This document shows, piece after piece, positions 1-15,015 of a DNA stretch of 38,078 bases. The DNA lies in contig JBAVFZ010000315.1 in NCBI GenBank assembly GCA_049684495.1, positions 1 to 38,078 on the forward strand. Reading direction: 5' to 3'. The stretch's first letter is position 1. Each line of letters starts with the position of its first letter. The notes beneath the pieces are model-generated. The model did not search any database. It was not told the DNA's origin and was given only the letters and a program-made list of their open reading frames with translations. The stretch comes from Anaerolineales bacterium (GTDB lineage: Bacteria; Chloroflexota; Anaerolineae; Anaerolineales; RBG-16-64-43). The position numbers and the translations under genes are program-made.

Positions 1-820
1 AAATTTCGACGAAGGCCGGCCGCCCCGCGAGGATCGAATTCCGAAGCGCCCATGGAAAAACCACCGCCGCCGCCGCAACCGCAAAGAGCACCGCTCCGCG
101 CAAGCTCCGGGCGAATTTCCAGATCCAGAACATCGCAAACGGAAGGAAGAACGCAAGCACCGAACGGGTGAGGATGCCCAGCCCGAGCACGGCGCCGGCC
201 AGGATGAACCACCTCACGCCGGGCCGTTCCCAGACGCCCGGCTCGGCCGCGGGCGGCCCGCCGCCGGTCGTCCGGTTGCTCTGCGCGCCGCGCAGGAGCA
301 GCAAGACGGTGCCGAGCGCCAGGACAAAGAACACATTCTCCGTCGCCAGCGCCAGCGGATAGAGCGCCAGCATCGGGTACAGCGCGACGATCAGGGCCGC
401 GACGCGGGCCGTGCGTTCATTCCCGGGGTCGACCCTCCGCGCCAGCACGTAGGCCATCGGCGCGAGCATCGCGTTCACCGCGGCCTGCGCCAGGCGGGCG
501 AAGAAGAAGCGGTGCGCCAGGCCGAAAATAAAATAAATAACCGTCAGGAAGATCGGGTACATCGGCGCGCGGAAGGCGGCTTCGATCCCCCGCGGATCGT
601 AGAGCACATTTGTTAAATCCACATTGAGGTACGGGCGGATCAGATCCAGGTCCGGTTCCGAATACCAGCGGTAGCCGTTGCCGGAGACCAGGCTGCGCCC
701 GAGCATGTCGTATTGGTGCATGTCGTCCAGCCCGATCCCGAGGTTGTACGACGCGAGGACCGGCGCCAACCGGATGACGAGCGCTAGCAGATAAATCCAT
801 TTGGGGATTTTAATTTCCAC
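1..820 (-). CDS. GT-C superfamily polytopic membrane glycosyltransferase (ArnT/PMT-like), first ~273 codons; gene continues beyond the left edge
   Basis: Absent from the ORF track because its stop lies outside the window. My translation of the minus strand starts at GTG 820, with GGGAG 7 nt upstream and an in-frame TAA at 848-850 closing the frame upstream. It reads VEIKIPKWIYLLALVIRLAPVLASYNLGIGLDDMHQYDMLGRSLVSGNGYRWY...APMYPIFLTVIYFIFG...LATENVFFVLALGTVLLLL...VRWFILAGAVLGLGILTRSVLAFFLPFAMFWIWKF...VVFPWALRNSILAGRPAFVEI. I checked every tca/tta/cta on the plus strand from 1 to 820 and none falls in this frame. It has several hydrophobic helices and a DD-x3-Y first-loop motif. Confidence 0.7.
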   Translation of the reverse strand, partial: MEIKIPKWIYLLALVIRLAPVLASYNLGIGLDDMHQYDMLGRSLVSGNGYRWYSEPDLDLIRPYLNVDLTNVLYDPRGIEAAFRAPMYPIFLTVIYFIFGLAHRFFFARLAQAAVNAMLAPMAYVLARRVDPGNERTARVAALIVALYPMLALYPLALATENVFFVLALGTVLLLLRGAQSNRTTGGGPPAAEPGVWERPGVRWFILAGAVLGLGILTRSVLAFFLPFAMFWIWKFARSLRGAVLFAVAAAAVVFPWALRNSILAGRPAFVEI

Positions 821-918
821 TCCGCCGCTCCCTGAGAAGGCTTCATTTTACTATGCGCGGCCCGGTGGCAACGGTTCGATCTTTTTATGATTTTTTGGAT
901 TAACCTGTGGAAAAGCAT

Positions 919-980
919 ATCCACGGAGAACACGGAGGTTTACGGAAAATAACTCCGTGCGTCTCCGTGCCCTCCGTGGA
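919..980. repeat. 62-nt three-module hairpin repeat, copy A
   Basis: Sequence: atccacggagaacacggaggtttacggaaaataactccgtgcgtctccgtgccctccgtgga. The outer stem TCCACGGAG (920-928) pairs perfectly with CTCCGTGGA (972-980). The second module is CACGGAG/CTCCGTG and the third is ACGGA/TCCGT. It lies between the GH10 stop (1021) and the GT-C start (820). Confidence 0.75.
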
Positions 981-1020
981 CCACCCGCTCAGATGTCGGG
1001 CGCGGCGGTCCAAGCGCGGC

Positions 1021-3045
1021 CTACGGCATGCCGCCGTCCGGAAAATCCAGCAGGGTTTCCCACAAGGCAAAATAAGCCGGCTTGGGATTGTATTCTGCGT
1101 CAAACAGCAGGGGATTTGCGCCGGGCTCATGAATGCACCAACTCTCCCGGCAATCCTGCATCAGCCAAGAATTCAAATCGGATACTCCCCATGTGGTGAA
1201 ATTCGCGCACACGCCGGATCCCAGGCAGGCTTCCATCATATCCCGGTACAGAGAGGCCTGAAAGGACAATTGCTCCTCGGTCGATCCCGGGCGGTCGTGG
1301 AGATCGACGTCGAATTCCGTGACATACACCTCCACGCCCAGAGAGCCGAATTTCCGCATAGTGGCGGCCACCTCTTCTTTTTTCGGAACGACGGGGCTGT
1401 TGTATTGCAGCATTAATAAATGCATTTGCATGCCCACCGCGTCGATCGGGACTCCCTTGGCTTTCATCTCCTTCACCATCTCGTACATGGTCGACACCAT
1501 CTTCCGGGTGAAGAAATCCCGCGGGCTTTCGTTGTTGCAATCGTTGAAAATTAATATCGCCTCCGGATCCGCTTCATGGGCCCAGCGGAACGCCCATTCG
1601 ATATACTCCGGACCCAGGACGTCGTGCCAGAAATCAATGCCGGAATAATAATAGGACCGGCTGACGGCCTCGTTGGCGACAATCCATTCCTTGACCCGCC
1701 CTTTAAAATGCCCGACCGTCGTTTTTACCAGTTCCTCGAGCAGCGCTTTGTATTCGTCCCGCGTGTAATGGCCGTACCGCAGCCAGTCGGGAATTCCCGT
1801 CGGCCTGTCCCCCCATACCACCGAGCCCCGAACCCGCCAGCCTTGCCGGACGGCAAAATCCACTTGGTCGTCCAGATAATCGAAATCGAACTTGGCGGGT
1901 TCGATCCATTGATCCTTCCAGGAAAAGCCGGAAAGGACTACGACGTTGTAATTCCTCCTTAAAGTGCGGCAATAACGCACGTCTTGAAACGCATTATCGT
2001 TGTACTCGGTGCCGAAGGTCAGGTTGTGCCGCGCGGCCAGCTCGAACAATCCCGGATACCGTTGCGCCCGTTCGGACCAAATCCCGTCGGACGGCACGCC
2101 GATTTTCAATCCGCTGATCGCGAGCGCGGAGCGGGGCGTCATGGTTGTGCCGAAGAAGAACCTTCCGTCCGGAAACAAGCCGTTCGGCAGATTCAAGCCG
2201 GAGATCGCCGTTAAATTCAGATGCAGGACGGCTTTTTTCTCGCCGTTAAAAACAGCGAGACTCTTCCCTTCCGGTTGTTCGAATACAATTTCGATGGGCT
2301 CGGAGGTGGTCAGACCGGGAACGGCGATGGTGTAATTCCAGTCCTCGCGGGTCCCGTCCCGGATCCGGATCGAATATCCTCGGTTGCGTTCCGCCAGAAT
2401 GTCCATCCGGATATTGTCTTTCCACCATGGAGTTTGATCGTCCGCCGAGCCGGAAAGCTTCACGCCCCCGCTGTCCCCGGCCAGCAGCAGCATACTTTCC
2501 ACGCGGAAGTGCAGCGGAGCGGCAAGCGGGGTGAGGGCGGCATTGATATCGGCCGGGCCGGCATTGTTTCGGTTGTCGAGCGTGATCGATCCGGACCGGA
2601 CGTCATAAACGTCCTGATACGGAGAACAGAGGGGATAGAAAAAAGGTTTCCACGGCACCGAAGCAGAATCCAATTCTGGCAGTCCGGCCTTCAAAGCCGG
2701 GATTGCGGTCGAACGGACAAAACCGATGATTTCCTTTCCATCGGGTTCCGCCCCGACCTCCGTGAAATCGCCGTAGACTCCCAAGGGAGACACCGTTGCT
2801 CCCGCTCGGAGGAGTGCCAGAGGTTCGAAGTCGGCGTTCCCGGGTCCCCCGTAGAAAACCGCGTCTTGGTCGAGTTGGATGGTCGGACGTTCTGTGGGGA
2901 TTACCGGAGTATGGGTGGACGGTGACGAGGGAGAGGGAATAAAGATGGCGGGGGTCGAGGATGTGTCCGGTGTCGGCATCGGTTTTACGGCACAAGCGGT
3001 CAAGAAGACAAGAAAAGCCGTCAGCGCGATCCAAAAAGATTTCAT
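1021..3045 (-). CDS. Glycoside hydrolase family 10 (endo-1,4-beta-xylanase-like) lipoprotein with a large unassigned N-terminal region
   Basis: ORF track 1021..3105. GH10-type catalytic Glu contexts occur in the C-terminal third (KEWIVANEAVS and VEVYVTEFDVDL). The preferred start is ATG 3045 with GGAG 6 nt upstream. That start gives MKSFWIALTAFLVFLTAC, a signal peptide with an LTAC lipobox. A Pro/Ser/Thr-rich linker and about 330 aa without motifs I can place follow. Confidence 0.8.
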   Translation of the reverse strand: MKSFWIALTAFLVFLTACAVKPMPTPDTSSTPAIFIPSPSSPSTHTPVIPTERPTIQLDQDAVFYGGPGNADFEPLALLRAGATVSPLGVYGDFTEVGAEPDGKEIIGFVRSTAIPALKAGLPELDSASVPWKPFFYPLCSPYQDVYDVRSGSITLDNRNNAGPADINAALTPLAAPLHFRVESMLLLAGDSGGVKLSGSADDQTPWWKDNIRMDILAERNRGYSIRIRDGTREDWNYTIAVPGLTTSEPIEIVFEQPEGKSLAVFNGEKKAVLHLNLTAISGLNLPNGLFPDGRFFFGTTMTPRSALAISGLKIGVPSDGIWSERAQRYPGLFELAARHNLTFGTEYNDNAFQDVRYCRTLRRNYNVVVLSGFSWKDQWIEPAKFDFDYLDDQVDFAVRQGWRVRGSVVWGDRPTGIPDWLRYGHYTRDEYKALLEELVKTTVGHFKGRVKEWIVANEAVSRSYYYSGIDFWHDVLGPEYIEWAFRWAHEADPEAILIFNDCNNESPRDFFTRKMVSTMYEMVKEMKAKGVPIDAVGMQMHLLMLQYNSPVVPKKEEVAATMRKFGSLGVEVYVTEFDVDLHDRPGSTEEQLSFQASLYRDMMEACLGSGVCANFTTWGVSDLNSWLMQDCRESWCIHEPGANPLLFDAEYNPKPAYFALWETLLDFPDGGMP

Positions 3046-3147
3046 ACCCGACTCCATTTTTCTTTCCATGACCGATTGTACTATGCGCAATCCGGGCGCA
3101 ACCAAGCCGTATGGAAATGGTGGGTATCGGTCAACTGGGGGGTCATG

Positions 3148-3210
3148 AATCCACGCAGGACCCGGAGGGACAGGAAAAATTTTCGCGGCCCTCTGTGCCC
3201 TCCGTGGATT
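3148..3210. repeat. Three-module hairpin repeat, copy B (63 nt)
   Basis: Sequence: aatccacgcaggacccggagggacaggaaaaattttcgcggccctctgtgccctccgtggatt. The 3' arm CTCTGTGCCCTCCGTGGA matches copy A (CTCCGTGCCCTCCGTGGA) at 17 of 18 positions, in the same orientation. AATCCA/TGGATT and CGGAGGGACAG/CTGTGCCCTCCG can pair. It lies between the zinc-ribbon stop (3247) and the GH10 start. Confidence 0.7.
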
Positions 3211-3246
3211 AATATGAATGAGGATCGAACCAAGCGTGCGAGAACG

Positions 3247-3555
3247 CTATTTGGATCCCTTGCGAAAGTCGGTTCGCGACCAGGGGGAGCTGTTTTCAGG
3301 CGGGATCCGCCTGCGGGGATTGGAGAGCGAGGGGATATGCGCCGCCGGCCCGAGGATGAGCCGCAACGCGTCCAGCGCGTCCTCATCGTATTCGCAATGG
3401 CGGCAGATGTCGCAGATCCAGGCCGGGAAGTTCGGGACGTGCACCAGGGTTCCCTCCAGTTTTGCGTAGTAGGGAACCATCCCGGGTTTAAGCGTGCCCA
3501 CCTGGCATTCCGGGCATGTTTCGGTTGGGGTTGCGGGATACCGATCGTCGGTCAT
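3247..3555 (-). CDS. Small YgiT/MqsA-N-terminal-type zinc-ribbon protein (102 aa), no HTH domain
   Basis: This is the tail of track ORF 3247..3717. ATG 3555 overlaps the lepB stop as ATGA (3552-3555). The product is MTDDRYPATPTETCPECQVGTLKPGMVPYYAKLEGTLVHVPNFPAWICDICRHCEYDEDALDALRLILGP.... It has two CxxC pairs (CPEC and CDIC) spaced as in the MqsA N-terminal zinc domain. The C-terminus is low-complexity. Confidence 0.65.
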   Translation of the reverse strand: MTDDRYPATPTETCPECQVGTLKPGMVPYYAKLEGTLVHVPNFPAWICDICRHCEYDEDALDALRLILGPAAHIPSLSNPRRRIPPENSSPWSRTDFRKGSK

Positions 3556-4244
3556 GAAATGATCCAGTCGTCGCACGATTCGCGTGGGAGGTATCCCCAC
3601 CGGCATGCGTTGAACGTGCGGAGGTAATTGTACCGGAAAGAGCTTACCGCCGGGGCGGCATCCGGATCTTCCGCCCCGACCCTCCATTCGAGCGGGCCCC
3701 ATTCCGCGGGAGGCCAATAGATAACCCAGGCTTTCCCGACTACTTCCGAAAGTGTAATCGGCCCGAAAGAGCGGGAATCCAGCGAAATCGGGCGGTTATC
3801 CCCCATTACAAAGAGATCGTTATCCCCCAGCTGCCATTTGTTATCCGGACGGGTGGCTCCGGAAACGTAGGTTTCATCCAGGCGCGCGCCGTTGATCCAG
3901 ACCGACCCGTCGCGGATCTCCACCGTCTCCCCCGGCAGGCCAATCACCCGCTTGATCAGGTCGTCGGTTTGAGCGTTGGTCGGCGGCAGGAACACGACCA
4001 CGTCGCCGCGTTGCGGGGAACCCACCCGGTATATCAGACGGTTGACGACGATCCATTCCCCGCTGAGGAGAGTCGGCCGCATGCTCGGCCCTTCGACGAC
4101 GACCCGCGCGGTCAGCAGGCTGATCACAAGGTAGAACACGCCGGCCAGCGCGACCGTCTGCAGGAGCTCGATCACGATCGCGCGGAGTCTGGAACCGGTT
4201 GTCGGCGTGGAAACCGCATCTCCGGGAAGCGGCAAATAATCCAT
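3552..4244 (-). CDS. lepB: Signal peptidase I
   Basis: ORF track 3552..4271, where the track start is TTG. ATG 4244 (MDYLPLPGD...) is preferred, with GAGG 4 nt upstream. The catalytic Ser context is GPSMRPTL and the Lys context is IKRVIGLPGE. The GDNRPISLDSR box and an N-terminal TM segment (TVALAGVFYLVISLL) are also present. Confidence 0.9.
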   Translation of the reverse strand: MDYLPLPGDAVSTPTTGSRLRAIVIELLQTVALAGVFYLVISLLTARVVVEGPSMRPTLLSGEWIVVNRLIYRVGSPQRGDVVVFLPPTNAQTDDLIKRVIGLPGETVEIRDGSVWINGARLDETYVSGATRPDNKWQLGDNDLFVMGDNRPISLDSRSFGPITLSEVVGKAWVIYWPPAEWGPLEWRVGAEDPDAAPAVSSFRYNYLRTFNACRWGYLPRESCDDWIIS

Positions 4245-4337
4245 GGCACCTCGGCCGGAAGTCCTCCCCAAATCCGGCTGGCAGATTATACGGCTCCGAA
4301 CCGGGGAATGTAAGGGGATGCAAACTCGAATTCATTT

Positions 4338-4399
4338 GCCACAAAAGGCACAAAAATCACAAAATTTTTTTCTTTTGTGTCTTTTGTGCCTTTAGTGGC
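4338..4399. repeat. 62-nt three-module hairpin repeat, AT-rich variant, copy C
   Basis: Sequence: gccacaaaaggcacaaaaatcacaaaatttttttcttttgtgtcttttgtgcctttagtggc. GCCACAAAAGGCACAAAA pairs with TTTTGTGCCTTTAGTGGC at 17 of 18 positions, and the inner module is CACAAAA/TTTTGTG. It has the same length and the same CAC/GTG skeleton as copy A. It lies between the der stop (4428) and the lepB start. Confidence 0.7.
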
Positions 4400-4427
4400 T
4401 ATGAAATTGGCTCGGAAAGTATTTTTC

Positions 4428-5795
4428 CTACGTTTTTTTCCGGAAGGAAAATACCAGCGGGGTTCCCAGGAACGGGTAGCGCTTGCGGATCTGGTTTTCC
4501 AGGTAGCGGCGGTAGGAAAAATGCACCAGGAGCGGATCGTTCACGTGAAACAGGAAGGTCGGCGGATCGGCTTTCACCTGCGAGGCGAAAGCCAGCTTCA
4601 GTTTCCGGCCGGAGTGTGAGGGCGGCGCGTGTTTCTCCTGCGCCTCGCGCATGATCCGGTTCAATTCGGCGGTCGGGATCCGCACCAGGCGTTCTTCCTG
4701 GACCCGCAGAGCCATCGGCAGGATTTCCCCCGTCCGCTGCCCGGTGCGGGCCGAGACGAACAGCACCGGGACGTAAGCCAGAAAGTCCAGCTCCTTGCGG
4801 ATCCAATCCTGGAAGACTTCCATGGAATGCGTATCCTTCTCCACGGCGTCCCATTTGTTGACCACCAGCACCGCGCTGCGCCGGGCCTCCAGAATGAATC
4901 CCGCGATGTGCGCATCCTGGGTCGAGAGTTCTTCGGTCGCGTCGAGGACCAGCAGCACGACGTCCGCGCGTTCGATCGCCCGCAGCGACCGCAGCACGCT
5001 GTATTGCTCCACCCCCGGCTCGATCTTGCCCCGGCGGCGGATGCCGGCCGTGTCGATCAGCGTGATCGGCGTATCCTGGTACACCGCCTGCGTGTCCACC
5101 GCGTCGCGGGTCGTGCCCGGGATCGGGCTGACGATCACCCGCTCCTCCCCCAGTAGGCGGTTGAGCAGGCTGCTCTTGCCCACGTTCGGCTTGCCGACGA
5201 TCGCAATGCGGATCCGGTCGTCCCCCTCCTCCGTCTCCCGCACGGCGGGAAGCACCGCGGTCATCGCGTCCAGCAGATCCCCCACGCCGGTTCCGTGCAG
5301 GGCGGACACCGGATACGGGTCCCCCATGCCGAGTTCGTAGAATTCGGCGGCCTGCTCCCGGCGCGAGCGGTTCTCGCATTTGTTGACCACCAGCAGGATC
5401 GGCGTGCGCGGCTCGCCCTTCCCCGCGCCGCGCTGTTTGCGCAGGATCTGCGCCACTTCGGCATCGGCCGGCGTCACGCCGGATTCGCCCTCGACCAGGA
5501 ACAGCACTAGGTCGGCGTCATGGATCGCCATCTCGGCCTGCAGGCGGATCTGCTTGATGTAATCCGCCGAGCCGGTCGAAAGCGGCTGGCCGCGGCGGAA
5601 AAAATCCGGGTCGATGCCGCCCGTATCCACCACGTCAAACGTCCGTCCCTGCCACTCGCCTTCCGCCATCAGGCGGTCGCGGGTCGTGCCGGGCGTGTCG
5701 TCGACGACGGCCAGGCGCTCCCCGACCAGGCGGTTGAAGAGAGTGGATTTGCCGACATTCGGCCGGCCCACCAGGGCGACAATCGGTTTTCGCAT
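4428..5795 (-). CDS. der: Ribosome-associated GTPase Der (EngA), tandem GTPase domains
   Basis: 455 aa. There are two P-loops, GRPNVGKSTLFNRL and GKPNVGKSSLLNRL. There are two DTxG motifs (DTGG, DTAG) and two NKxD motifs (NKCE-like and NKWD). A KH-like C-terminus is present. Confidence 0.95.
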   Translation of the reverse strand: MRKPIVALVGRPNVGKSTLFNRLVGERLAVVDDTPGTTRDRLMAEGEWQGRTFDVVDTGGIDPDFFRRGQPLSTGSADYIKQIRLQAEMAIHDADLVLFLVEGESGVTPADAEVAQILRKQRGAGKGEPRTPILLVVNKCENRSRREQAAEFYELGMGDPYPVSALHGTGVGDLLDAMTAVLPAVRETEEGDDRIRIAIVGKPNVGKSSLLNRLLGEERVIVSPIPGTTRDAVDTQAVYQDTPITLIDTAGIRRRGKIEPGVEQYSVLRSLRAIERADVVLLVLDATEELSTQDAHIAGFILEARRSAVLVVNKWDAVEKDTHSMEVFQDWIRKELDFLAYVPVLFVSARTGQRTGEILPMALRVQEERLVRIPTAELNRIMREAQEKHAPPSHSGRKLKLAFASQVKADPPTFLFHVNDPLLVHFSYRRYLENQIRKRYPFLGTPLVFSFRKKT

Positions 5796-5817
5796 CAGAG
5801 GATTCCGCTGGGTTTTG

Positions 5818-7053
5818 TCAGGGTGTGGGTGTCACGGTCGCTTTTATGATCACCACTTCCACCTGTTCCGGGGATAGGATGACCAGCTTCAAGCCGGCGG
5901 GCATGTTGACTTCCGGCGTAAGTTTATAGGTGCCTGCGTCCTTTCCGGTCAGATCCAGGAACACGTCGATATCGGCCGGTTTGAGCGACCAGATGACCGG
6001 GGCGGGGCCCGAAAGGATGACGTCCACGAATGCCGGCGAAAGCGTGACCGAGAGCCCCGGCTCCAGCCCCTGGAACCGGATCGGGCGGGAAATGGTGATG
6101 CTGTCCTCGATCGCGGAAATGCTTACCTGGACGACGATCAGCGGATCCCCCACCACCTGAACTCCTTCGGGCAGGACCAGGGAAAGCGATTTGGTGATGT
6201 CGGCCGAAGCGCCGGAAATATCCAGCGGCTGGGTTTCCACATATCCGGGCAGTGCCCGGATCACATCCGGATTGTCGGAATACAGTGTCACCACCTGCGG
6301 ATTGATGGTCAATCCGGTCAGCCGGTAACCGCTTTTTACCGCGCCCAGCAGCGGAACCTTCACCACCAGGTCGCGGTATCCGCCGAGCTGCTGGACCGGA
6401 ACGGAAACGGAAACCGACGCCGGGTCGATGGTAACCCCCGTCACGACCGTCCCCTCCGTATCCAGGGGGATCAGTTCGACGCTTTGATCCATCGCGCTTC
6501 GCACTCCCTCGACATTAACCGTCGCGACGATCTGCGCGATCCGATCCACAACCGACTCCGGTCCGGACACCGATACGCTCTCGGGAGAGACGGCCGGAGT
6601 GCCGGCCTGGAAACCCGGGGCGAGGTTGCCGGCCTGTTGTACGCGCACAGCCATGGAGCGCAAGGCCAGCCGGTCGATGAGGATGTCTACCTTCGCCGGC
6701 TCAACCGATTCCACCAGTACCGGTGAAATATCGGTCTGGATGCGGACCGGAACGGAAAATTCTCCCTCGCTCTTCCCCGTCAAATCCAGTTGGGCATGGA
6801 CGTTTTCCGGCACGAGCTGATCCCAAACCGAGTGCGGCGCGCGGAAAGTTACCTGCACGCCGACGGATTCATAACCCTGGGCGACCAATCCCTCCTTGAG
6901 CCCGGACACCTCGATCGACAGGGGGGCCGAGAGGATCCGGGTTTCGTCCGGATCTTCGGTGGAAACGGCGTTCATCCATACCGCCACGGCGAGGATGGCC
7001 GCCAGGAGCAGCGAGAAAATGTTCCCCCCCAGGGATCTCAGTTTCTGTTTCAT
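5818..7053 (-). CDS. cdaR: YbbR-domain protein, CdaA regulator CdaR-like
   Basis: 411 aa. An N-terminal TM segment (IFSLLLAAILAVAVWM) is followed by repeated beta-rich modules. ATG 7053 overlaps the cdaA stop as ATGA (7050-7053). The position directly downstream of cdaA is the conserved location of cdaR. Confidence 0.7.
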   Translation of the reverse strand: MKQKLRSLGGNIFSLLLAAILAVAVWMNAVSTEDPDETRILSAPLSIEVSGLKEGLVAQGYESVGVQVTFRAPHSVWDQLVPENVHAQLDLTGKSEGEFSVPVRIQTDISPVLVESVEPAKVDILIDRLALRSMAVRVQQAGNLAPGFQAGTPAVSPESVSVSGPESVVDRIAQIVATVNVEGVRSAMDQSVELIPLDTEGTVVTGVTIDPASVSVSVPVQQLGGYRDLVVKVPLLGAVKSGYRLTGLTINPQVVTLYSDNPDVIRALPGYVETQPLDISGASADITKSLSLVLPEGVQVVGDPLIVVQVSISAIEDSITISRPIRFQGLEPGLSVTLSPAFVDVILSGPAPVIWSLKPADIDVFLDLTGKDAGTYKLTPEVNMPAGLKLVILSPEQVEVVIIKATVTPTP

Positions 7054-7949
7054 TCGGAACGCCTTTCCTCGCCATCGGAACCTTCGCCATCCTGCGATCG
7101 TGCGGCGGCGGAAGCGCCCTTGCGCAGGAATAACGGCCAGGGAATGGCCGGCGCGCGCGACGCATTGCGGGTGAATGCCAGCAGGATGTTCTGCAGCCGC
7201 TGGGGATCCAGCCGGCGGATCATCCGTCCGTTATGCGCCACCGAGAGGATCCCCGTCTCTTCGGAGACGACCACCGCCACGGCGTCGCTGACCTCCGAGA
7301 TCCCGAGCGCCGCGCGGTGGCGCAGCCCCATCCGCCGCTCCGATGCGGCCAGTGCGTTGCCGGAAGAGAGCGGCACGACGCACCCGGCGGCCAGCAACCG
7401 CTCGCGGCGCAGGATCACCGCGCCGTCATGCATCGGCGTGTTCGGGTAGAAGATCTGCAGCAGCAGTTCGGTCGAGACTTCCGCATCCAGCTTCAGGCCG
7501 GTGGAGGAAAAATCATCGAGCCCGACGTCGCGCTCGATCACCAGGAGCGCCCCGTGCCGCCGTTCGGAAAGGCGCTTGGCCGCGGCGACGACCGCCTGGA
7601 TGTACGGGGGAACCTCCGTCGACGGGGACGCGCGGCGGAAAAAATCCGCCCGTCCCACCCGTTCGAGGGTCCGGCGGATCTCCGGCGCGAATACGACCGG
7701 GATGACGATCAGGAGCGCCGGAAGGATCGTCTGCAGAATCCAGGAAATCGCCGGAAGCTGGGTCACGCTGGTCAGGAGCGCGACGGCGACGATCATGATC
7801 GCGATCCCGCGCAGCACCGTGCCGGCCTGAGTCCCTCGGAACTGGGTCAGGATGACGAAAAAAAGCAGCGCGACCAGGGCGATATCGAGCAGATCGAACC
7901 ATCGCAGGCGCTGGAAAAGGAAAAGGGTGTTCTCGACGAGCTGAGTCAT
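7050..7949 (-). CDS. cdaA: Diadenylate cyclase CdaA (DisA_N/DAC domain, three N-terminal TM helices)
   Basis: 299 aa. The DAC-domain DGA and RHR motifs are present (PMHDGAVIL, GLRHRAALGISE), followed by AVAVVVSEETG. The N-terminus is hydrophobic (FDLLDIALVALLFFVIL, GIAIMIVAVALL). Confidence 0.9.
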   Translation of the reverse strand: MTQLVENTLFLFQRLRWFDLLDIALVALLFFVILTQFRGTQAGTVLRGIAIMIVAVALLTSVTQLPAISWILQTILPALLIVIPVVFAPEIRRTLERVGRADFFRRASPSTEVPPYIQAVVAAAKRLSERRHGALLVIERDVGLDDFSSTGLKLDAEVSTELLLQIFYPNTPMHDGAVILRRERLLAAGCVVPLSSGNALAASERRMGLRHRAALGISEVSDAVAVVVSEETGILSVAHNGRMIRRLDPQRLQNILLAFTRNASRAPAIPWPLFLRKGASAAARSQDGEGSDGEERRSE

Positions 7950-7958
7950 GGGTTGCGG

Positions 7959-10295
7959 TCAGGTCAGCGATCCGGATTCCAATTTGTGAAGAAGGTCCTG
8001 ATACCCCTCGGCATTCGGCGGCCGCAGGGCGAGAATGGCGCGCACGGTAAGGATCGCCTCGGGGACGTTCCCGGCTTCGATCTGGGCGTCCCCCAGCGCA
8101 TCCAGCTGGCCGATCGCCTCGGCGATCCGCCCCCGCTGCTGGTAGGTCTCCGCCAGTTTCCGCCGCAGGAGAGCTTCCTCGGGCCGGACCCGCACCAGTT
8201 CCTCCAGCCACGCCAGCACCTGGTCCTGCCGCCCGAGGCGCGTCCACTCGCGGCTCACGCTGTCGATCAGGTTTTGCGCGTCGGATATTTTTCCGAGCCG
8301 CATCATCATGTCCACCAATTGGGTCCCGGCCTTCTCGTCGGTCGGGTCGAGCTGTTGCAGACGCTGGAAGGTTTGCAGCGCCGCCCGGTAATCGAGCCGC
8401 TGCATGTAAAGGTCGCCCAGCCGGTAGAGCAGCTGGATCTGCCAGGATTTGTCGGCGTTGTTCCGGACGGCGAGCATCAACGCGGATTCGTACGTCTGGC
8501 GCGCGCCTTCCAGATCGGCCAGCTGGGTGTATACATCCGCCAGGTCGAGGTAGGAACTCAGCGCGCTGCGCATGTCGCCCTGTTGAACCAGAAGAGTGAT
8601 CAACTCGGTCCGGGAATTTACATCCATCGGGTTGATCTGCAGGATCCGCTCATAGGTCTTCGCGGCCTGCACCGTCTCGCCGCGGATCCGGTAGGTCCGG
8701 GCGATCAGCGCCAGCTTGGCCAGCGCTTCCGTCTGCTTGTCTTCTTTAAGCTGGATTTCCGTGATTCGCAGATGCAGCGGCAGGTAGGTCGGTCCGTGGT
8801 CGAGGGCGAGCATCGCCTGTTCCATCGCCGTCCGCCACATCCCGCGCTGCATCGCCAGATCCAGGTAACCCATCGCTTCGATCAGCGCCTGCGGCTTCCC
8901 GAGCGAGAGCATTTCCGCCAGCGGGGCGATCCCGGGCGAATCCGATTGCGCATCCAATTGCGCGCGCGCCAGCCGCAGGCGGCTTTCCCAGTCCGGCGAG
9001 GTGAGCAGGCTTTCGATCCGTTCCCCGGTCTGGTTCCATTGATCCGGTTCCTGTTCGGATTCGGGGACTTCCAGGAAGGCTTCGTAGGCGCGCTGCAGCG
9101 CATCCCGCTGTTCTTCCGGGACGGTATTCATATCGGCTTGGCGCAGCGCCGAAAGGAAATGGATCGCCGATTGGTAGGCTTTGCCGGAATCGCGGTACGC
9201 CCGGCCGAGGATGTAATGCGAACCCATCGAAAGATCCGGATGCTCGACCGCTTTCTGCAGCGAAAGGATCGCCGGTTCCAACTCCCCTTCGGCCAGTTGC
9301 AGCGTGCCGAACAGGAACGAAGCCGCCGGATGTTCGAACCCGACCCGGAAGGCGCGGTCCAGGTATTGCATGGCTTCCTGGTTTTGCTGCCGCGAGTAGG
9401 CGTCGATGGCCAGGGCGAGGTAGCGGTTCTGGTCGGCGCGCGAGGAGTCGGCCTTTTCCTCGCCGCGCGTGAATTGGTCGATCGAAACGCGCCGGTGATC
9501 AAAAGTGTCTTTGTCCGCTTCGAACAGCTTTTCGGCGAGGACCGCCATCGCTTTTTTCTGCGCCGCGTCCTGCGGGCTGGCGGATTTCTGTTCAAGATTC
9601 GCCGACTGCCGGGGAGCGGGCGCCACCGGTTCGGGCACCATCCCCGCCGGCGGGGTGAGCATCCCGGTCATACCCGGCTTGTAGGGCGGCGGGATGGCAA
9701 GCATTTTTCCCGATTTCAGGGCCGCGCGCGCCCGGGCGAGTTCCGGCGAATCGGGTAGGATTTTCATCCCCTGTTCGACGGCCTGCATCGCTTTTTCCGG
9801 CTGGCGCGCCCGCTGCATGATCGCGGACAGCGCCAGGTATTCGGTGACCGCTTGTTTGACCTGCCCCGTCCGTTCGAACGCCAGCGCCAGGCGGGACCGG
9901 GCGACCATGTTTTCCGGGACCAGGCGGGCCGCCGCCAGCCAGTTGTCGATCGCTTTATCCGCTTCGTGCTTGGCCAGGAACAGCTCCGCCGCGCTCAGCC
10001 GGAGCTGAACCGATTCGACCACCCGGCTGCCACGCTCGAGGATCTCGGCGATTTTTTCATGTGGAATGGGATTTTGGGGATCGGCGCGGATCGCTTCCTG
10101 ATACACCGACTGGGCTTGGTCGAGCTGTCCGCTCTGCATGTACGCCAGCCCCAGATGGTCCATCGCGACCGGATCACCGGGAAATTCCGTGATGGCCCGT
10201 TGGTAGGCGGTGATCGCCTGCTCCCATTTTTGATCCCACGCCGCGCTGTTTCCCTGCCGCAGAGCCTGTTCGTATACTTCGCGATGACCGGGCAT
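7959..10295 (-). CDS. Large tetratricopeptide-repeat (TPR) protein
   Basis: ORF track 7959..10355, where the track start is TTG. ATG 10295 (MPGHREVYEQALRQ...) is preferred because a TGCTATACT extended -10 lies at 10321-10329, inside the longer ORF. 34-residue helical-pair repeats run throughout, for example AITAYQRAITEFPGDPVAMDHLGLAYMQSGQLDQAQSVYQEAIRADPQNP. Confidence 0.8.
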   Translation of the reverse strand: MPGHREVYEQALRQGNSAAWDQKWEQAITAYQRAITEFPGDPVAMDHLGLAYMQSGQLDQAQSVYQEAIRADPQNPIPHEKIAEILERGSRVVESVQLRLSAAELFLAKHEADKAIDNWLAAARLVPENMVARSRLALAFERTGQVKQAVTEYLALSAIMQRARQPEKAMQAVEQGMKILPDSPELARARAALKSGKMLAIPPPYKPGMTGMLTPPAGMVPEPVAPAPRQSANLEQKSASPQDAAQKKAMAVLAEKLFEADKDTFDHRRVSIDQFTRGEEKADSSRADQNRYLALAIDAYSRQQNQEAMQYLDRAFRVGFEHPAASFLFGTLQLAEGELEPAILSLQKAVEHPDLSMGSHYILGRAYRDSGKAYQSAIHFLSALRQADMNTVPEEQRDALQRAYEAFLEVPESEQEPDQWNQTGERIESLLTSPDWESRLRLARAQLDAQSDSPGIAPLAEMLSLGKPQALIEAMGYLDLAMQRGMWRTAMEQAMLALDHGPTYLPLHLRITEIQLKEDKQTEALAKLALIARTYRIRGETVQAAKTYERILQINPMDVNSRTELITLLVQQGDMRSALSSYLDLADVYTQLADLEGARQTYESALMLAVRNNADKSWQIQLLYRLGDLYMQRLDYRAALQTFQRLQQLDPTDEKAGTQLVDMMMRLGKISDAQNLIDSVSREWTRLGRQDQVLAWLEELVRVRPEEALLRRKLAETYQQRGRIAEAIGQLDALGDAQIEAGNVPEAILTVRAILALRPPNAEGYQDLLHKLESGSLT

Positions 10296-10320
10296 TCGTC
10301 CCTCGAAGGCTTCCTCACAG

Positions 10321-10329
10321 AGTATAGCA
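10321..10329 (-). promoter_or_regulatory. Candidate extended -10 promoter (TGCTATACT) for the TPR-cdaA-cdaR-der unit
   Basis: The minus strand reads ...AAAAAGAAATTCATAATAAATTTATTTGGAGGCGGCGCCGTTTCTTCGGTATGCTATACTCTGTGAGGAAGCCTTCGAGGGACGAATG. There is a TGn-TATACT element with an AT-rich, UP-like block (10351-10385) upstream. No good -35 hexamer is present. Confidence 0.35.
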
Positions 10330-10595
10330 TACCGAAGAAACGGCGCCGCCTCCAAATAAATTTATTATGAATTTCTTTTTTTACTTACGCTGCGGATCCG
10401 CCGCGCGGCGCGCGGGCAGATCGGCGGCGGCCGGCCGCGCACCGCAGGGGAAGGAGCGATCGGTTGATTTGGACAAGGGATATGGGAAACCGGAACCGCC
10501 GGTGAGACCCCGGTATCGACGCTAATCACACATATCCGGACGCGCGGAAGGCGGACCTTCGGTTTGGATCAGCTCATTTCCGGAAAGAGGCCGGA

Positions 10596-11579
10596 TCATT
10601 CCCCGGGGTATTTCAATCCCCATTCGGCGCGGATCGCATCCAGGGTCTGCAGGATGCGCAGCGTTTCATCGAGCGGCATTACGCGGCTTTCCAGCTTTCC
10701 GCCGCGCAGGCACTCCATCACTTCCACCGCCTCGTGGGCATATCCGTTCCCGAGGTTGGGGATTGTCACCGTTTCATCCGCGCGTCCGGCGCGGGATAGC
10801 GTGATCGTATCGGAATGCCACCAAGCGGGGTGAATCCGGATCCGACCGCCCGTGCCGATGATGTGAGCCTCCTGGGGCGAGGCGAATCGCAGCGCGCAGG
10901 AGATGATCGCCAAGCGCCCGGCCGAGAACTCCATGACCGCCGCTGATTGTTCGTCCACTCCGGTGGCGCCGAGCGACGCGACGGATACCAGCCGTCGCGG
11001 AGCCCCGCCGAACACCATGGAAGAAAGAGAAACCGGATACACCCCAAGATCCAGCAGCGCGCCGCCGCCGAGCGCCGGATCAAACTTCCGGTCCTTCGGA
11101 TCGAATTCCGCATGTATCCCGAAATCCGCCTGCACCTGGCGCACGTCCCCGATCGCGCCTTCCGCAAGCAGGTTGCGCATCTTTACATACACCGGGAGGA
11201 AGCGCGTCCACATCGCTTCCATCAGGAATATTTTTTTCTTCCGCGCCAGGGCGATCACTTCCTCCGCCTGGCGGGCATTGATCGTGAACGGCTTTTCGCA
11301 CAGGACGGCCTTGCCGGCGGACAGGCATCCGAGCGCGTTCTCGCGGTGCAGCGTATGCGGGGTGGCGATATAAACCGCATCCACCTCCGGATCCGCCATC
11401 AGCGCCGCATAACTCCCGTGCCGGTGGGGGATTTTCCATTTCGCGCCGAAGGAATCGGCCGAGGCCTGCGTGCGCGAGCCGACGGCGGTCATCCGTGCAT
11501 CCGGAAGCAGCGCCAGGGCCTCCGCGAATTTTCGCGCGATCCCGCCCGTTCCCAGAATTCCCCAGCGTATGGCGTCCAT
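10596..11579 (-). CDS. Gfo/Idh/MocA family NAD(P)-dependent oxidoreductase
   Basis: 327 aa. The N-terminal Rossmann motif is WGILGTGGIARKF. The family EKP motif is VLCEKPF. The C-terminal alpha/beta domain is typical of dimeric dihydrodiol or sugar dehydrogenases. Confidence 0.85.
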   Translation of the reverse strand: MDAIRWGILGTGGIARKFAEALALLPDARMTAVGSRTQASADSFGAKWKIPHRHGSYAALMADPEVDAVYIATPHTLHRENALGCLSAGKAVLCEKPFTINARQAEEVIALARKKKIFLMEAMWTRFLPVYVKMRNLLAEGAIGDVRQVQADFGIHAEFDPKDRKFDPALGGGALLDLGVYPVSLSSMVFGGAPRRLVSVASLGATGVDEQSAAVMEFSAGRLAIISCALRFASPQEAHIIGTGGRIRIHPAWWHSDTITLSRAGRADETVTIPNLGNGYAHEAVEVMECLRGGKLESRVMPLDETLRILQTLDAIRAEWGLKYPGE

Positions 11580-11596
11580 GAGACCCTCGCTTTCCG

Positions 11597-11680
11597 CCTC
11601 ACCCCCATCCCCCGTCCCCTTCCCCCTCTCCTGCGTTTGCCGCAGGAGAGGGGGAAGGGGTGCAGGGGTTAGGGGTGAGG
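11597..11680. repeat. G/C-rich palindromic element (CCCCTCTCCTG family), copy D
   Basis: ccccttccccctctcctgcg (11616-11635) and cgcaggagagggggaagggg (11641-11660) form a perfect 20-bp stem around the loop tttgc. Imperfect arms extend to cctcaccc (11597) and ggtgagg (11680). The element starts 5 nt after the glyQS stop and ends 17 nt before the next start codon. Confidence 0.8.
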
Positions 11681-11685
11681 AAATT

Positions 11686-14600
11686 CTAAAATCCTTCCAG
11701 CTTGGATAAATCCACCACGCCCTCCGGCAGGCGCGCGATCCGCTGCAGCATGCCGAGCCGGTTGTTGCGCACCGCCGGATCGCCGGTCATCACCAGCACA
11801 TCCTCGAAGAATTTCGAGATCGCGGGGATGTGCGGCACGAACGCCGCAAGGAGAGTCTCGACCGTCAACGCGCCGGCTTTGGAAAGCGCCGCTGTATCGT
11901 CTTCCGCCTTCCGGCATGCGTTCCACAACGCGCGTTCGGCGCCGTCGGCAAGCCGCTCCGGATCGACGGCGAAGGGCTCCGAATGCTCGCGGGTGATGCG
12001 CACGCAGCGCGCGTACGCCGCGAGCGTCGGAAGCCAGTCCGGCTTCCCGACCCAGCCGGTCAATTCCTCCGCGGCGCGGCGCGCCATCACCGGGTTGGCT
12101 CCCTGCGCCGCGAGCACCGCTTCCACCACGTCGTGGCGGAAATCCTGGTCCGCCAGCACCCCGCGCAGCCGCCCGGCGATGAATTCCATCACCTGCGCCT
12201 GGATCTGTTCTGAAACGGGGATCGGCTGCAGCGCGGCCGCCAGCCGGATCCCTTCGCGCAGGTCGAAGGAAATTCCGCGCGCCTGGAGGATCTGGATCAA
12301 GCCGAGCGCGGCGCGCCGCAACGCGAACGGGTCGCGCGTGCCGGTCGGCGCCAGCCCGGCGGCGAACAGCCCCGCGAGCGAATCCAGCCGGTCGGCAATC
12401 GCGACGGCAATACCCGCCGGCGATTCCGGCAGCGCGTCGTCCACGCCGCGCGGCAGGTAGTGCTCGTAAATCGCCCGGGCGACCTCCTTGGATTCCCCTG
12501 AATCGAGCGCGTAGTAGCGGCCGATCACGCCCTGCAGCGAGGTCATCTCCACCACCATCTGGGTCGCCAGGTCCGCCTTCGATAAATGCGCGGCCCGCAC
12601 CGCGTCGGCGGTTTGGGAGGTTGAGAGATTCAACATCGGAGAGATTTTCTCCGTCAGTTTTTCGACGCGCCCGCATTTGTCGAGCATCGATCCGAGTTTG
12701 GCCTGGAAGGCGAGCGTTCCCAGCCGCGGCAGGAACGCCTCAAGCGGCTTGCGGTGGTCCTCACGGATGAAGAACGCCGCGTCGGCGAACCGCGCGCGCA
12801 GCACGTGTTCGTTTCCCTCCCGTACGTTCGCCTCGCCCTCCCCCTTGCCGTTGCGCACGGCCAGAAAATATGGAAGCAGATCGCTTCCGCTTTGCACCGG
12901 GAAGTAGCGCTGATGCTTGCGCATCACCGAGATCAGCACTTCGCGCGGAAGCGCCAAGGATGCGGGATCGAACGCGCCGAGGATGGCTTGCGGCGCTTCG
13001 ACCAGTTCGGTGACTTCCTCGAGCAAACCCGGTTCGAAGGACACTTCGCCGCCGGCCTTGGCCGCCAGCGCGCCGGACTGCTTGCGGATGCGTTCGGCGC
13101 GGACCGCCGGATCCGGCTCAATCCCGTGGAGGCGCAGGGTTTTCAGATAATCCTCCGCCTGTTTAATGATGATCTCGGGCGAGTTCAGCGGCCGCAGCCC
13201 GCGGGTGATGCGCCCCGCGCGGAGCCCGCCCCATTCCACGGGAACGGCTTCGGTTCCAAGCAGTGCCACAAGCCAGCGGACCGGCCGGGAATAGGCGGGC
13301 GCGGATGCGTTCCAGCGCATCACCTTGGGGAACGGTAGGGCGGATACGGCGGCGCTCAGCAAACCGGGTAGGACGTCCAACACCGGCAGCCCTTTTTCAG
13401 TGCGCCGCAGGACGATGTAGCCGTTCTCCTCGCGCAGGGCTTTCGGGTCGATTTTGTTCTTCGCGGCGAATCCGGCCAGCGCCTGGGTTGGGGCGCCGTC
13501 CGGCTGGTAGGCCTTCGAGACCGGCGGCCCCTTCACCACGACCTCGATGCTTTCCTGGACCGGGGCCAGACCGCGGACGATCACCGCGACCCGGCGCGGG
13601 GTGCCGTAAACCGTCGCCTGCCGGAAGGACAGCCGGGCTTCCTTCAGCGCCGCGGTCAGTTTTTCCAATAGGTTTTTTCGGGCGGAAGCGGAATCCGCGG
13701 CGGGCAATTCTTCGACGCCGATCTCCAACAGCAGCGTTTGCGGGGTGACGGGCGGTTTCGGTTTCGCCGCGCGGGGCAGCGCCGGCGCGGGCTTGGAGAC
13801 CGAATGGAATTTCCCCTGAAGCGGAAATCCTTCCCCCTCCCGGCCCTTCAGGTATGTTTCCGCGACCTGCCGCGCCAAGTCGCGCATCCGGCCGAAGAAG
13901 TTGGCGCGTTCGGTAACCCCGACCGCGCCACGGGCATCCAGCACATTGAAGGCATGCGAGCATTTCAGGATGTATTCGTGCGCCGGGAGGACCAGCCCCG
14001 CCGCGAGCGCGGCGCGCGCCTCGGCTTCGAAGATTTCATACGACTGCCGCAGCCGCTCGACCCCGGCCACTTCGAAATTGTATTTGCTCTGCTCGCGCTC
14101 GTTTTGCATGAATACGTCGCCGTACGTGACGTCGCCCACCCAGCTGATGTTCTTGAAGTGGGAGGATTTCTGCAGCGCCATGAGGATCCGTTCCACGCCG
14201 TAGGTGATCTCCACCGAGGGAACGGGCAGTTCGATCCCGCCGGCCTGTTGGAAGTAGGTGAACTGGGTGATCTCCATCCCGTTCAGCCAGACTTCCCAGC
14301 CCAGCCCCCAGGCGCCCAGCGCCGGGGATTCCCAATTGTCTTCTACGAACCGCACGTCGTTTCCGCGCAAGTCGATCCCCAGCGCCTCGAGCGACCGCAG
14401 ATAGATCTCCTGCGGATTGCCGGGATCCGGCTTGAGGATCACCTGGAACTGGTAATACTGCTGCATCCGGTTGGGATTCTCGCCGTAACGGCCGTCGGCC
14501 GGGCGGACGGAAGGTTCCACATAGGCGACGTTCCATGGTTCGGGACCGAGTACGCGCAGGAAAGTGGCTGGATTCATCGTTCCGGCGCCGACCTGGATGT

Positions 14601-14712
14601 TGTACGGTTGCCAGATCAGGCAGCCCTGCTTGGCCCAGAATTCCTGCAACCCGAGAATTACCTGCTGGAGGTTTAACGGCTTGCGAGCGGCGGTCTTCTT
14701 TGTCTTTGGCAT
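11686..14712 (-). CDS. glyQS: Glycine-tRNA ligase, alpha and beta subunits fused in one polypeptide
   Basis: ORF track 11686..14718 (TTG start); ATG 14712 is two codons later. The N-terminus ([68 protein letters not shown]) is the GlyQ alpha subunit. After a Pro/Lys-rich linker ([20 protein letters not shown]), [12 protein letters not shown] begins a GlyS beta-subunit-like sequence that continues in frame to about 1008 aa. Confidence 0.9.
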
Positions 14713-14744
14713 TGGCAATTGTCCAAGGGGAAACAGATTTTTGG

Positions 14745-14750
14745 ATTATA
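14745..14750 (-). promoter_or_regulatory. Possible -10 hexamer (TATAAT) upstream of glyQS
   Basis: The minus strand reads GGTCTTTGATACGTTATAATCCAAAAATCTGTTTCCCCTTGGACAATTGCCAATG. There is a perfect TATAAT 32 nt upstream of ATG 14712. No convincing -35 is present (AAAGGG at 17-nt spacing). Confidence 0.25.
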
Positions 14751-14767
14751 ACGTATCAAAGACCTCG

Positions 14768-14830
14768 CCCTTTCCCCTCTCCTGAATTATCCCTCGCTTC
14801 GCTCGGGACAGGTGTCAGGGGAGGGGAAGG
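14768..14830. repeat. G/C-rich palindromic element (CCCCTCTCCTG family), copy E
   Basis: ccctttcccctctcctga (14768-14785) pairs imperfectly with tcaggggaggggaagg (14815-14830). The arm motif TTTCCCCTCTCCTG matches copy D (TTCCCCCTCTCCTG) at 13 of 14 positions. The 29-nt loop contains tccctcgcttcgctcggga. Confidence 0.6.
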
Positions 14831-14850
14831 AGCCGGGGGATGGAGCAAGG

Positions 14851-14880
14851 AAAAAAGAAACCGCCGCCCGGAAGCGGCGG
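14851..14880 (-). terminator. Rho-independent terminator downstream of tRNA-Leu
   Basis: The minus strand reads CCGCCGC-TTCCGG-GCGGCGG followed directly by TTTCTTTTTT. This is a 7-bp perfect GC stem, a 6-nt loop and a T-tract. It begins 9 nt after the tRNA 3' end. Confidence 0.75.
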
Positions 14881-14889
14881 CGATCGGTG

Positions 14890-14971: not shown

Positions 14972-14987
14972 GGCATGAAGCGCGGGA

Positions 14988-15015
14988 ATTATAGCCCAGC
15001 AAGGGGGTGTGTCAA
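14988..15015 (-). promoter_or_regulatory. Consensus sigma-70-type promoter for tRNA-Leu
   Basis: The minus strand reads TTGACA-CACCCCCTTGCTGGGC-TATAAT. Both the -35 (15010-15015) and the -10 (14988-14993) are perfect, with a 16-nt spacer. The tRNA 5' end lies 16 nt downstream of the -10. Confidence 0.65.

Follow-up and report, generated by a model that had tools for sequence, protein, structure and literature searches.

Do matching substitutions on the two arms of a hairpin testify to selection on its fold, or can something else keep the arms matched? The question is raised by a 62-nt stem-loop, here called copy C, at positions 4338–4399 of a 38,078-nt contig from an Anaerolineales bacterium of the phylum Chloroflexota (GenBank JBAVFZ010000315.1, assembly GCA_049684495.1). 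This whole contig was analysed and is hereafter referred to as the window. Copy C lies between the genes der and lepB, and two related hairpins, copies A and B, lie in the same window. The original prediction, made from the letters of the window, compared copies A and C, noted that GGAG/CTCC in the arms of one is AAAA/TTTT in the other, and took this change as an indication of selection on the fold. Here, we describe the family to which copy C belongs and examine whether base pairing or the arm sequence itself is conserved. We put the probability at roughly 0.65 that copy C is a relative, without an open reading frame (ORF), of a small selfish cassette, and that its fold is not kept by selection.

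Structure of copy C

Copy C is an imperfect palindrome of about 80 nt, and its 62-nt core, which reads exactly as it had been quoted, carries three CACAAAA/TTTTGTG-type units per arm (Table 1). The period is 9 nt, consisting of a 7-nt word and a 2-nt spacer; the inner spacers (AT/TC) are unpaired, and GG/CC and GC/GC are paired. Three CACAAAA units come first and are followed by three TTTTGTG or TTTAGTG units, so that the purine word array precedes its complement. As RNA, the element folds with −39.2 kcal/mol on the forward strand (z = −9.3) and −36.8 kcal/mol on the reverse strand (z = −8.7), and 0/200 shuffled sequences folded as well. The inverted repeat and these z-scores agree with the proposed hairpin and its three-module design, and copy A, which has the same architecture in a CACGGAG dialect, is its kin as had been suggested.

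The proposed absence of a T-tract is also borne out. No terminator-like site, defined as a stem with a T run, is present in 4150–4550, and the flank past the copy C stem on the sense strand is AAATGAATT, without a T run. Like an intrinsic terminator, copy C is a stable stem-loop that lies shortly past a stop codon and ahead of the following promoter. Unlike a terminator, it has no U-tract, its stem of about 27 bp is interrupted by periodic internal loops, and its terminal loop is 8 nt long and A+T-rich, those of other copies being longer. We rejected an intrinsic terminator as the identity of copy C because no T run follows its stem. In an Rfam search of window positions 1–15,000, no curated covariance model matched; the hairpins gave only sub-threshold microRNA-precursor matches, alongside one tRNA.

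A family of word-array hairpins

The window is contig C315 of a 3.97-Mb metagenome assembly with 475 contigs and 60.5% G+C, and the contigs of this assembly are designated below by C-numbers. Hairpins were counted by word-based censuses of the whole assembly, and different censuses covered 116, 127 or 132 loci. The genome contains approximately 130 hairpins whose arms consist of tandem 7-nt words with 1–3-nt spacers, in about ten dialects. Copy C belongs to the CACAAAR dialect (19 loci). The other dialects are CACGAAG (17 loci), CGCAAAG (15), ACAGGAT (15), CACNAAGA with a period of 8 (11), CGCAGAG (10), CACGGAT (9), CACGGAG (6, including copy A), CGCGGAT (6), and the GACCATG types with a period of 7. 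Most hairpins have 3+3, 3+2 or 2+2 units in their arms.

At 101/116 loci, the purine word array precedes its complement, and the plain reverse order occurs at only 5. A degenerate pattern describing this architecture has 69 (period 9) and 57 (period 8) matches in the genome, compared with 4 and 18 for the reversed arrangement, and the reversed matches are mostly junctions within tandem arrays of hairpin and linker. The hairpin architecture is thus far beyond chance. The loops average 75% A+T, compared with 39.5% for the genome. A T-tract follows the stem in 15/127 copies, and canonical intrinsic terminators with A and T tracts are present elsewhere in the genome.

At least 16 CACAAAR copies of the genome can be aligned with copy C, and their consensus is (T)AGC-CACAAAA-AG-CACAAAA-GA-CACAAAA ... 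TTTTGTG-CT-TTTTGTG-CC-TTTTGTG-GC(TA). These copies have non-complementary spacers in common, and their loops, 8–60 nt in length, are unrelated among most copies. The family consists of dispersed elements whose ends are inverted arrays of 2–4 copies of a 7-nt word with 1–2-nt purine or pyrimidine spacers. Small non-autonomous palindromic repeats are a known kind of element, and copy C is an ordinary member of its family.

Some hairpins of the family show further organization. Period-8 hairpins of the CCACAAAGACACGAAGACACCAAG type are arranged as 3–5 tandem repeats of an approximately 108-nt unit, comprising a hairpin and a conserved linker (C140:19540–19840, C432:6840–7260, and C126:140–490, 3300–3600 and 6150–6400), and the tandem arrays on C126 and C416 adjoin GxxExxY gene fragments. 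A small GC-rich hairpin (GCCCGCCCCGG...GGGCCGGGG) is nested in one arm of several heptamer hairpins (C255:4061 and 3262, C290:2894, C261:2546, C228:1273, and C126:3480 and 6370), as if a second tiny element inserts into them.

The word, not the base pair, is conserved

A naive covariation test on the outer two units per arm of 46 hairpins is strongly positive, with a score of 0.423 versus 0.204 after shuffling (0/500) and 138 double-change cells. To this extent the covariation noted between copies A and C is real. It is not specific to the pairs. When only word positions are scored, the true register gives 0.411, with 94.3% paired and 107 double-change cells. The crossed register, in which the outer 5′ unit is set against the inner 3′ unit and the reverse, served as a control that is physically incompatible with the hairpin, and it gives 0.417, with 94.6% paired and the same 107 double-change cells.

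Outside the word, base pairing is not maintained. Among 132 hairpins, 88.6% of word positions but only 41.4% of spacer positions are paired, and the latter value is that expected by chance from the purine/pyrimidine composition of the spacers (42.5 ± 4.4%). The variable fourth position of the word matches its partner in 56% of cases. The original prediction had accepted that it would fail if further copies carried arm substitutions that break pairing, and such substitutions are found at the spacers and variable positions. In 110 mixed-word hairpins, in-register mismatches (0.87) did not differ from out-of-register mismatches (0.84; permutation p = 0.69). No strand asymmetry between G·U and A·C was detected in 46 co-directional spacers, where the better fold belongs to the sense strand in 22 cases and to the antisense strand in 24; therefore, there is no sign of G·U tolerance on the transcribed strand.

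Every unit of both arms in each element bears one and the same word. What is conserved is this word, repeated in all units of both arms, and the hairpin is a consequence of its opposite orientation at the two ends, which makes the arms complementary. The contrast between GGAG/CTCC and AAAA/TTTT in copies A and C is a dialect difference between two sub-families. Thus, the structure, the gene context and the lack of a T-tract reported for copy C stand, and the headline claim of a selected fold is not supported.

A possible variant occurs in three other genomes of the order (G077, G112 and G122), in which some hairpins combine a CGCAGAG/CGCCAAG arm with a CTCTGTG/TTCTGTG arm. These arms would pair only via G·U on one strand and may represent a strand-specific variant at the RNA level.

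Association with small nuclease-like genes

In the full form of the element, a gene of roughly 125 codons lies between or next to the same arrays, and its sequence identifies the product as a putative minimal PD-(D/E)XK nuclease, GxxExxY (TIGR04256/PF13366). With period-7 words, the gene encodes a predicted four-helix-bundle protein of the intervening sequence (IVS) type (PF05635). The genome has 9 profile matches to PF13366 and 2 to PF05635. Word arms flank or adjoin seven GxxExxY genes with readable flanks, one of them of the CACAAAA type.

The C187 gene is enclosed by GAATC-CACGAAG-GG-CACGAAA ... CTTCGTG-CC-CTTCGTG-CT-CTTCGTG-GATTC, and the C219 gene by CGCTAAG/CGCGAAG and CTTAGCG/CTTTGCG arrays (dialect CGCTAAG/CGCAAAG). 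The C385 gene lies between two complete CGCAAAG hairpins, and the C416 and C126 genes adjoin period-8 arrays. Four ACAGGAT units precede the C429 gene, within which the contig ends. Two genes on C57 have CGCGGAT/CACGGAT-type repeats on both sides that were recognized by eye and were not called by the automatic word rule. At its end, the C93 gene has TTTTGTG-AT-TTTTGTGGCAAATTAAT; next comes a complete CACAAAA hairpin, which shares about 80% identity with copy C over 88 nt. Both PF05635 genes are located beside GACCATG-type arrays with a period of 7. Of the ten ORF-less dialects, eight are matched by an ORF-bearing partner in this genome, the exceptions being CACGGAG and CGCAGAG. Copy C has only its 8-nt loop and thus no TIGR04256/PF13366 or PF05635 gene between its arms; because the arms enclose no gene, we classify it as an ORF-less relative and not as a full cassette member.

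The association extends across the order, where 38/61 genomes have PF13366 genes. One word occurs at least three times in the combined flanks of 23/25 sampled genes, and approximately 14 of the 25 are enclosed, as judged by eye, by an upstream word array and its downstream complement. Hairpin and PF13366 gene counts are correlated (Spearman 0.74), as are their presence and absence (Fisher odds ratio 36, p = 6 × 10⁻⁸), in statistics that ignore phylogeny. The protein identity of PF13366 members decreases from 0.545 for identical words to 0.39 at four word differences (Mantel p < 0.0005).

The C187 protein matches TIGR04256 with 139 bits. Residues H21, E30, Y33, D70, E80, K82 and Q94 are invariant in seven GxxExxY proteins (H, GxGxxExxY, D, ExK and Q). 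A sequence search of the PDB with the GxxExxY protein returned no relatives. Its AlphaFold2 model (predicted local distance difference test score 89, predicted template modelling score 0.81) has Cas4 SSO0001 as its best structural match, ahead of lambda exonuclease and other PD-(D/E)XK nucleases.

Spread across genomes

The period-9 pattern is present in 75/151 genomes of the order, with up to 219 copies in one genome, and in 68/301 genomes of the phylum including other classes, with up to 123 copies in one. The reversed control pattern has no matches in nearly all of these approximately 450 genomes. We also scanned one genome per prokaryotic species for CACAAAG-NN-CACRAAG...CTTYGTG-NN-CTTYGTG and obtained at least 120 stretches from more than 10 phyla, against a chance expectation of about 0.004. 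Among the matches listed are Verrucomicrobiota, Kiritimatiellia, Chloroflexota, Acidobacteriota, Bacteroidota, Planctomycetota, Desulfobacterales, Latescibacterota, spirochaetes, Alphaproteobacteria, Gemmatimonadota and Cyanobacteria, and all those listed have one three-unit design closed by ACCAC...GTGGT. Hairpins with CACAAAG/CACRAAG words are present, for example, in the genomes of Calothrix sp. NIES-4105 and Brevundimonas sp. Root1279. At a Thermoanaerobaculia locus, a CACAAAG hairpin lies 8 nt past a GxxExxY gene. The 120 cross-phylum loci (approximately 860 kb) contain two GxxExxY genes within 8 kb, which is roughly the genome-wide density; therefore, the hairpins are dispersed and not clustered around the genes.

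Position and turnover at gene 3′ ends

The genes neighbouring copy C are all on the reverse strand, in the order der, hairpin, lepB, consistent with the gene context first given for copies A and C. The extended palindrome starts 19 nt past the der stop codon (19–28 nt, depending on the boundary used), and copy C ends about 15 nt ahead of the −35 box of a promoter-like site for lepB. The TTTACA...TATAAT motif of this site is retained in the der–lepB spacer of relatives throughout the family. Genome-wide, 53 hairpins lie between co-directional, 23 between convergent and 7 between divergent genes, in a genome with 1108, 245 and 252 such spacers of at least 60 nt, respectively; they are enriched between convergent genes and depleted between divergent ones. 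In co-directional spacers, the median distances of the hairpins are 23.5 nt to the preceding stop codon and 72.5 nt to the start codon that follows, and 35 lie nearer the stop codon versus 11 nearer the start codon (p = 5 × 10⁻⁴).

A hairpin of this kind occurs in the orthologous der–lepB spacer only within the genus, with different words and interiors in each species. The spacer of the present genome (G000) has CACAAAA words, that of G007 has CACAAAG words with a 75-nt interior, and that of G002 has CGCAAAG/CACAAAG words with a 110-nt interior; G006 has a degenerate hairpin, and in G004 a T6 run follows a short hairpin. In the other genera of the family that were examined (L007–L014, L016, L018 and L019), the spacer has only the conserved lepB promoter and no such hairpin. 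In wetland metagenomes, similarity to the der-bearing contigs of relatives breaks off precisely at the der stop codon, and other contigs match only a copy C arm within unrelated flanks; all matches to the copy C locus come from DNA metagenomes.

A second site in the window, downstream of glyQS, behaves similarly. Its G-rich hairpin has the opposite orientation in G002 and is missing from G004, where the spacer is 24 nt; in G006 and G001, other palindromes take its place. Filled and empty sites between glyQS and the following GFO/IDH/MocA gene differ beside the insert without showing any direct repeat. Some CACAAAR copies have TA...TA next to them, which might just as well belong to the palindrome. 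The 3′ arm in G002 corresponds to the 5′ arm of G000, with a reverse-complemented loop, suggesting a flip by arm-to-arm recombination or a re-insertion. The members of the family are dispersed and labile, lie close to the 3′ ends of genes, and are associated with small nuclease-like genes.

Alternative explanations

The alternative that survives best, which we nevertheless consider unlikely, is an RNA element selected by the host, in which the fold is kept as a terminator, stabilizer or RNase site at the 3′ end of the der mRNA and the arm changes are compensatory. Such an element would account for the very stable fold, the location of copy C between the der stop codon and the lepB promoter, the short median distance of the family from stop codons and its depletion between divergent genes, the positive result of the naive covariation test, and the hairpin with T6 at the same site in G004. 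It does not account for the equal covariation in an impossible crossed register, for spacers that pair at chance and a variable word position matched in only 56% of cases, or for the equal folding of sense and antisense strands. T-tracts are rare in the family, the der–lepB spacers of the other genera examined have no such hairpin, sites turn over between congeners, and the same arms flank nuclease genes, all of which argue against a host function.

Improbable to a greater degree is an array of DNA sites for a conserved host protein, such as a nucleoid or replication factor, without any relationship to the small nuclease genes. The conserved words with free spacers, the strict orientation rule, and the presence of CACAAAG/CACRAAG words in many phyla are in line with protein binding. 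A single host protein is difficult to reconcile with about ten dialects side by side in one genome, a patchy occurrence of 0 to 219 copies among genomes of one order, an occurrence that tracks PF13366 genes, and sites that are not conserved between congeners. None of the explanations based on CsrA, Hfq, Rho, DnaA boxes, Chi sites or Shine–Dalgarno sequestration explains the ten or so dialects in one genome.

A local origin without mobility, in which slippage makes the tandem units, template switching makes the palindromes and the small genes are merely nearby, fits the variable unit numbers, the local tandem arrays of hairpin and linker, and the hypervariable loops, but is very improbable: correction by template switching would give complementary spacers and the spacers are not complementary, copies of one dialect have common non-complementary spacers and flanks (TAGC...GCTA) that point to common descent, near-identical arms, spacers and flanks are already partly seen at dispersed sites (the CACAAAR alignment and the C93 hairpin), the same words recur across phyla, and the arrays enclose genes in a fixed geometry.

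A probable selfish cassette and its empty relatives

The reading that we favour is that copy C is an empty relative of a selfish cassette. The word arrays would serve as recognition or homology sites for copying or exchange of the cassette or its empty derivative, and the likely reader of the arrays would be the cassette's own nuclease; indirect hints that a cassette protein may act on its own word array come from the correlation between proteins and words and from the intact PD-(D/E)XK motif and fold. Copy C would then be a selfish or neutral insert after der, which probably arose through loss of the ORF or through copying of an empty element. Among the roles listed in the original prediction, a small mobile hairpin element fits best.

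A der transcript reading through copy C would carry a stem of about 27 bp, composed of 7-bp helices with small internal loops. This stem could end or process the transcript ahead of the lepB promoter, as a by-product and not as the cause of the matched arms. The stem of an rRNA IVS is an RNase III substrate, which suggests a possible fate for the transcribed hairpin: by analogy, RNase III might cleave the copy C stem, or the stem might impede read-through toward lepB. A terminator or RNA-processing effect of copy C may exist.

Several points weigh against this interpretation. Movement was not observed, and neither a target-site duplication nor an exact insertion boundary could be defined. The loops differ greatly within one dialect, unlike those of a classical miniature inverted-repeat transposable element (MITE). 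The correlation between proteins and words could reflect common descent of the whole cassette and not recognition, and the disregard of phylogeny affects the co-occurrence statistics as a whole. The relation may also run the other way, with genes homing into hairpins that already existed. Of the sampled genes, about half are not enclosed and are instead located beside complete hairpins or have a one-sided array. A position after the stop codon and before a promoter is also expected of a host terminator, and G004 has a short hairpin with T6 at this very site. Finally, the metagenome-assembled genome is fragmented, and its gene calls come from a custom approximate caller.

Comparison with known repeat systems

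The hairpins resemble MITEs and the repetitive extragenic palindromes (REP/REPIN) associated with RAYT (TnpA_REP) transposases in being short, gene-less, palindromic, high-copy and intergenic, mostly at gene 3′ ends, and in forming several sub-families per genome, each apparently tied to a small protein-coding relative. Copy C has the terminal inverted repeats of a MITE, with 36-nt arms that are 81% complementary, but the CACAAAR copies do not have a conserved interior. The heptamer hairpins further differ in that their arms are spaced arrays of 7-nt words instead of a unique terminal repeat, their interiors are hypervariable, no target duplication was seen, and the associated gene encodes a PD-(D/E)XK protein of about 125 residues (TIGR04256) or a PF05635 protein and not a Y1 or DDE transposase. 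The genome has two PF01797 (Y1_Tnp) genes, on C84 and C199. Membership in a REP/RAYT system was rejected, as these two genes are flanked by another, GC-rich repeat and have no CRC word arrays within 600 nt. The RAYT-like gene at C84:494–829 has a GC-rich repeat of about 150 nt (GCTCGGGACAGGCACGATGCC...) on both sides, a candidate for a REPIN-type system distinct from the heptamer hairpins.

Two further palindrome families in the genome are not made of heptamer arrays. One is a dispersed perfect palindrome, AAGACCGAGGCGGTCTTAAGACCGCCTCGGTCTT (C36:1902, C381:7892, C226:838 and 23242, C280:685, and C442:1), and the other is TGGATTCCCGC...GGGAATGACG (C292, C423, C104 and C70).

Tandem 7-nt intergenic units are known as the GGGAATC repeats of Xanthomonas and the GGGGAYT repeats of Nostoc (Rehm et al. 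2015, PMC4692102). In the accessible portion of that report, Xanthomonas genomes have 70–75 convergent inverted GGGAATC pairs each, and the repeats favour the 50 bp after the stop codon, are mostly transcribed, are interpreted as G-quadruplex formers, and are generally without mobile-element association. The G-rich glyQS hairpin and the GACCATG arrays resemble the word types described in that portion, which links no small-gene cassette to the repeats. The TAACTGA repeats are direct repeats upstream of start codons and not hairpins (PMC4679880). The CRC-purine words of the present family have 1–2-nt spacers (period 8–9) and, unlike the Xanthomonas and Nostoc repeats, cannot form G-quadruplexes. 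Cyanobacterial short tandemly repeated repetitive (STRR) sequences, reportedly described by Mazel et al. in 1990, are also tandem heptamer repeats, and the GACCATG arrays here presumably resemble STRR2.

The IVSs of 23S rRNA genes (PF05635, 23S_rRNA_IVP) likewise have inverted arms around one small gene. Copy C differs from them in lying outside an rRNA gene, in having no ORF, and in its period-9 CACAAAA word, a word type that is tied to GxxExxY and not to PF05635. A literature search by repeat sequence and family names found no account of the element or the cassette.

Neighbourhood of copy C in the window

The features of the window are summarized in Table 1. Copies A and B bracket a GH10 gene, for which no counterpart is present in the congeners G001, G002, G004 and G006. 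In those four genomes, lepB is followed by a zinc-ribbon ORF, and between this ORF and the PMT gene there is at most a G-rich hairpin. Because the four congeners have no counterpart, the GH10 gene appears to be a lineage-specific insertion at a hairpin site. The units of the glyQS hairpin are GGGGGAT, GGGGAAG and similar words, which represent another dialect of the same element class. A composite palindrome at 32939–33089, located between two GT4 genes (GTCATTCCGAG...CGAGGAATCGGT...ACCGATTCCTCG...CTCGGAATGAC), is a different kind of repeat. It recurs at this site in G002, G004 and G006, and as a degraded version in G001, and it is thus positionally conserved, unlike the heptamer hairpins.

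Table 1 Copy C and neighbouring features of the window
Feature	Position	Strand	Description
GT-C/PMT gene	2–820	−	other neighbour of copy A
Copy A	920–980	.	same architecture as copy C, CACGGAG dialect, downstream of GH10
GH10 gene	1021–3105	−	between copies A and B
Copy B	3148–3210	.	degenerate CACGSAGG-type hairpin, upstream of GH10
lepB (signal peptidase I)	3552–4271	−	Pfam Peptidase_S26, E = 5.7e-43; downstream of copy C
lepB promoter-like site	4285–4314	−	CTTACA-18 nt-TATAAT, 10/12 matches, just downstream of copy C
Copy C, whole element	4329–4408	.	imperfect palindrome, ORF-less heptamer-array hairpin, CACAAAR dialect
Copy C, inverted repeat	4329–4364 and 4373–4408		arms of 36 nt each
Copy C, purine arm	4338–4364	+	GC, CACAAAA 4340–4346, GG, CACAAAA 4349–4355, AT, CACAAAA 4358–4364
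Copy C, loop	4365–4372	+	TTTTTTTC, 8 nt, A+T-rich, T-rich
Copy C, pyrimidine arm	4373–4399	+	TTTTGTG 4373–4379, TC, TTTTGTG 4382–4388, CC, TTTAGTG 4391–4397, GC 4398–4399
der (EngA GTPase)	4428–5795	−	Pfam MMR_HSR1 (two stretches) and KH_dom-like; stop codon 4428–4430
G-rich heptamer-array hairpin	11597–11680	.	between glyQS and GFO/IDH/MocA gene; z = −11 to −12

Implications

Elements built from a repeated word yield strong "compensatory" covariation without selection on pairing, which calls for caution in the discovery of RNA motifs, and a crossed-register control exposes such false covariation. If the link between hairpins and genes holds, it would provide a role for two protein families that are very common but have no known function, and it would suggest where the heptamer repeats of several phyla, long unexplained, come from. 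It would also point to a source of rapid turnover, and perhaps of terminators or processing sites, at the 3′ ends of bacterial genes. We tentatively raise a broader idea, to which we give somewhat less than even odds: inverted arrays of spaced 7-nt words may mark pan-bacterial miniature selfish cassettes, in which each gene, encoding either a minimal Cas4-like GxxExxY nuclease or an IVS/Avd-like four-helix bundle, would read its own dialect, with empty derivatives settling at gene 3′ ends. If this is true, STRR sequences, the Xanthomonas heptamer repeats, and the ORF-bearing IVSs of rRNA genes would be facets of one system.

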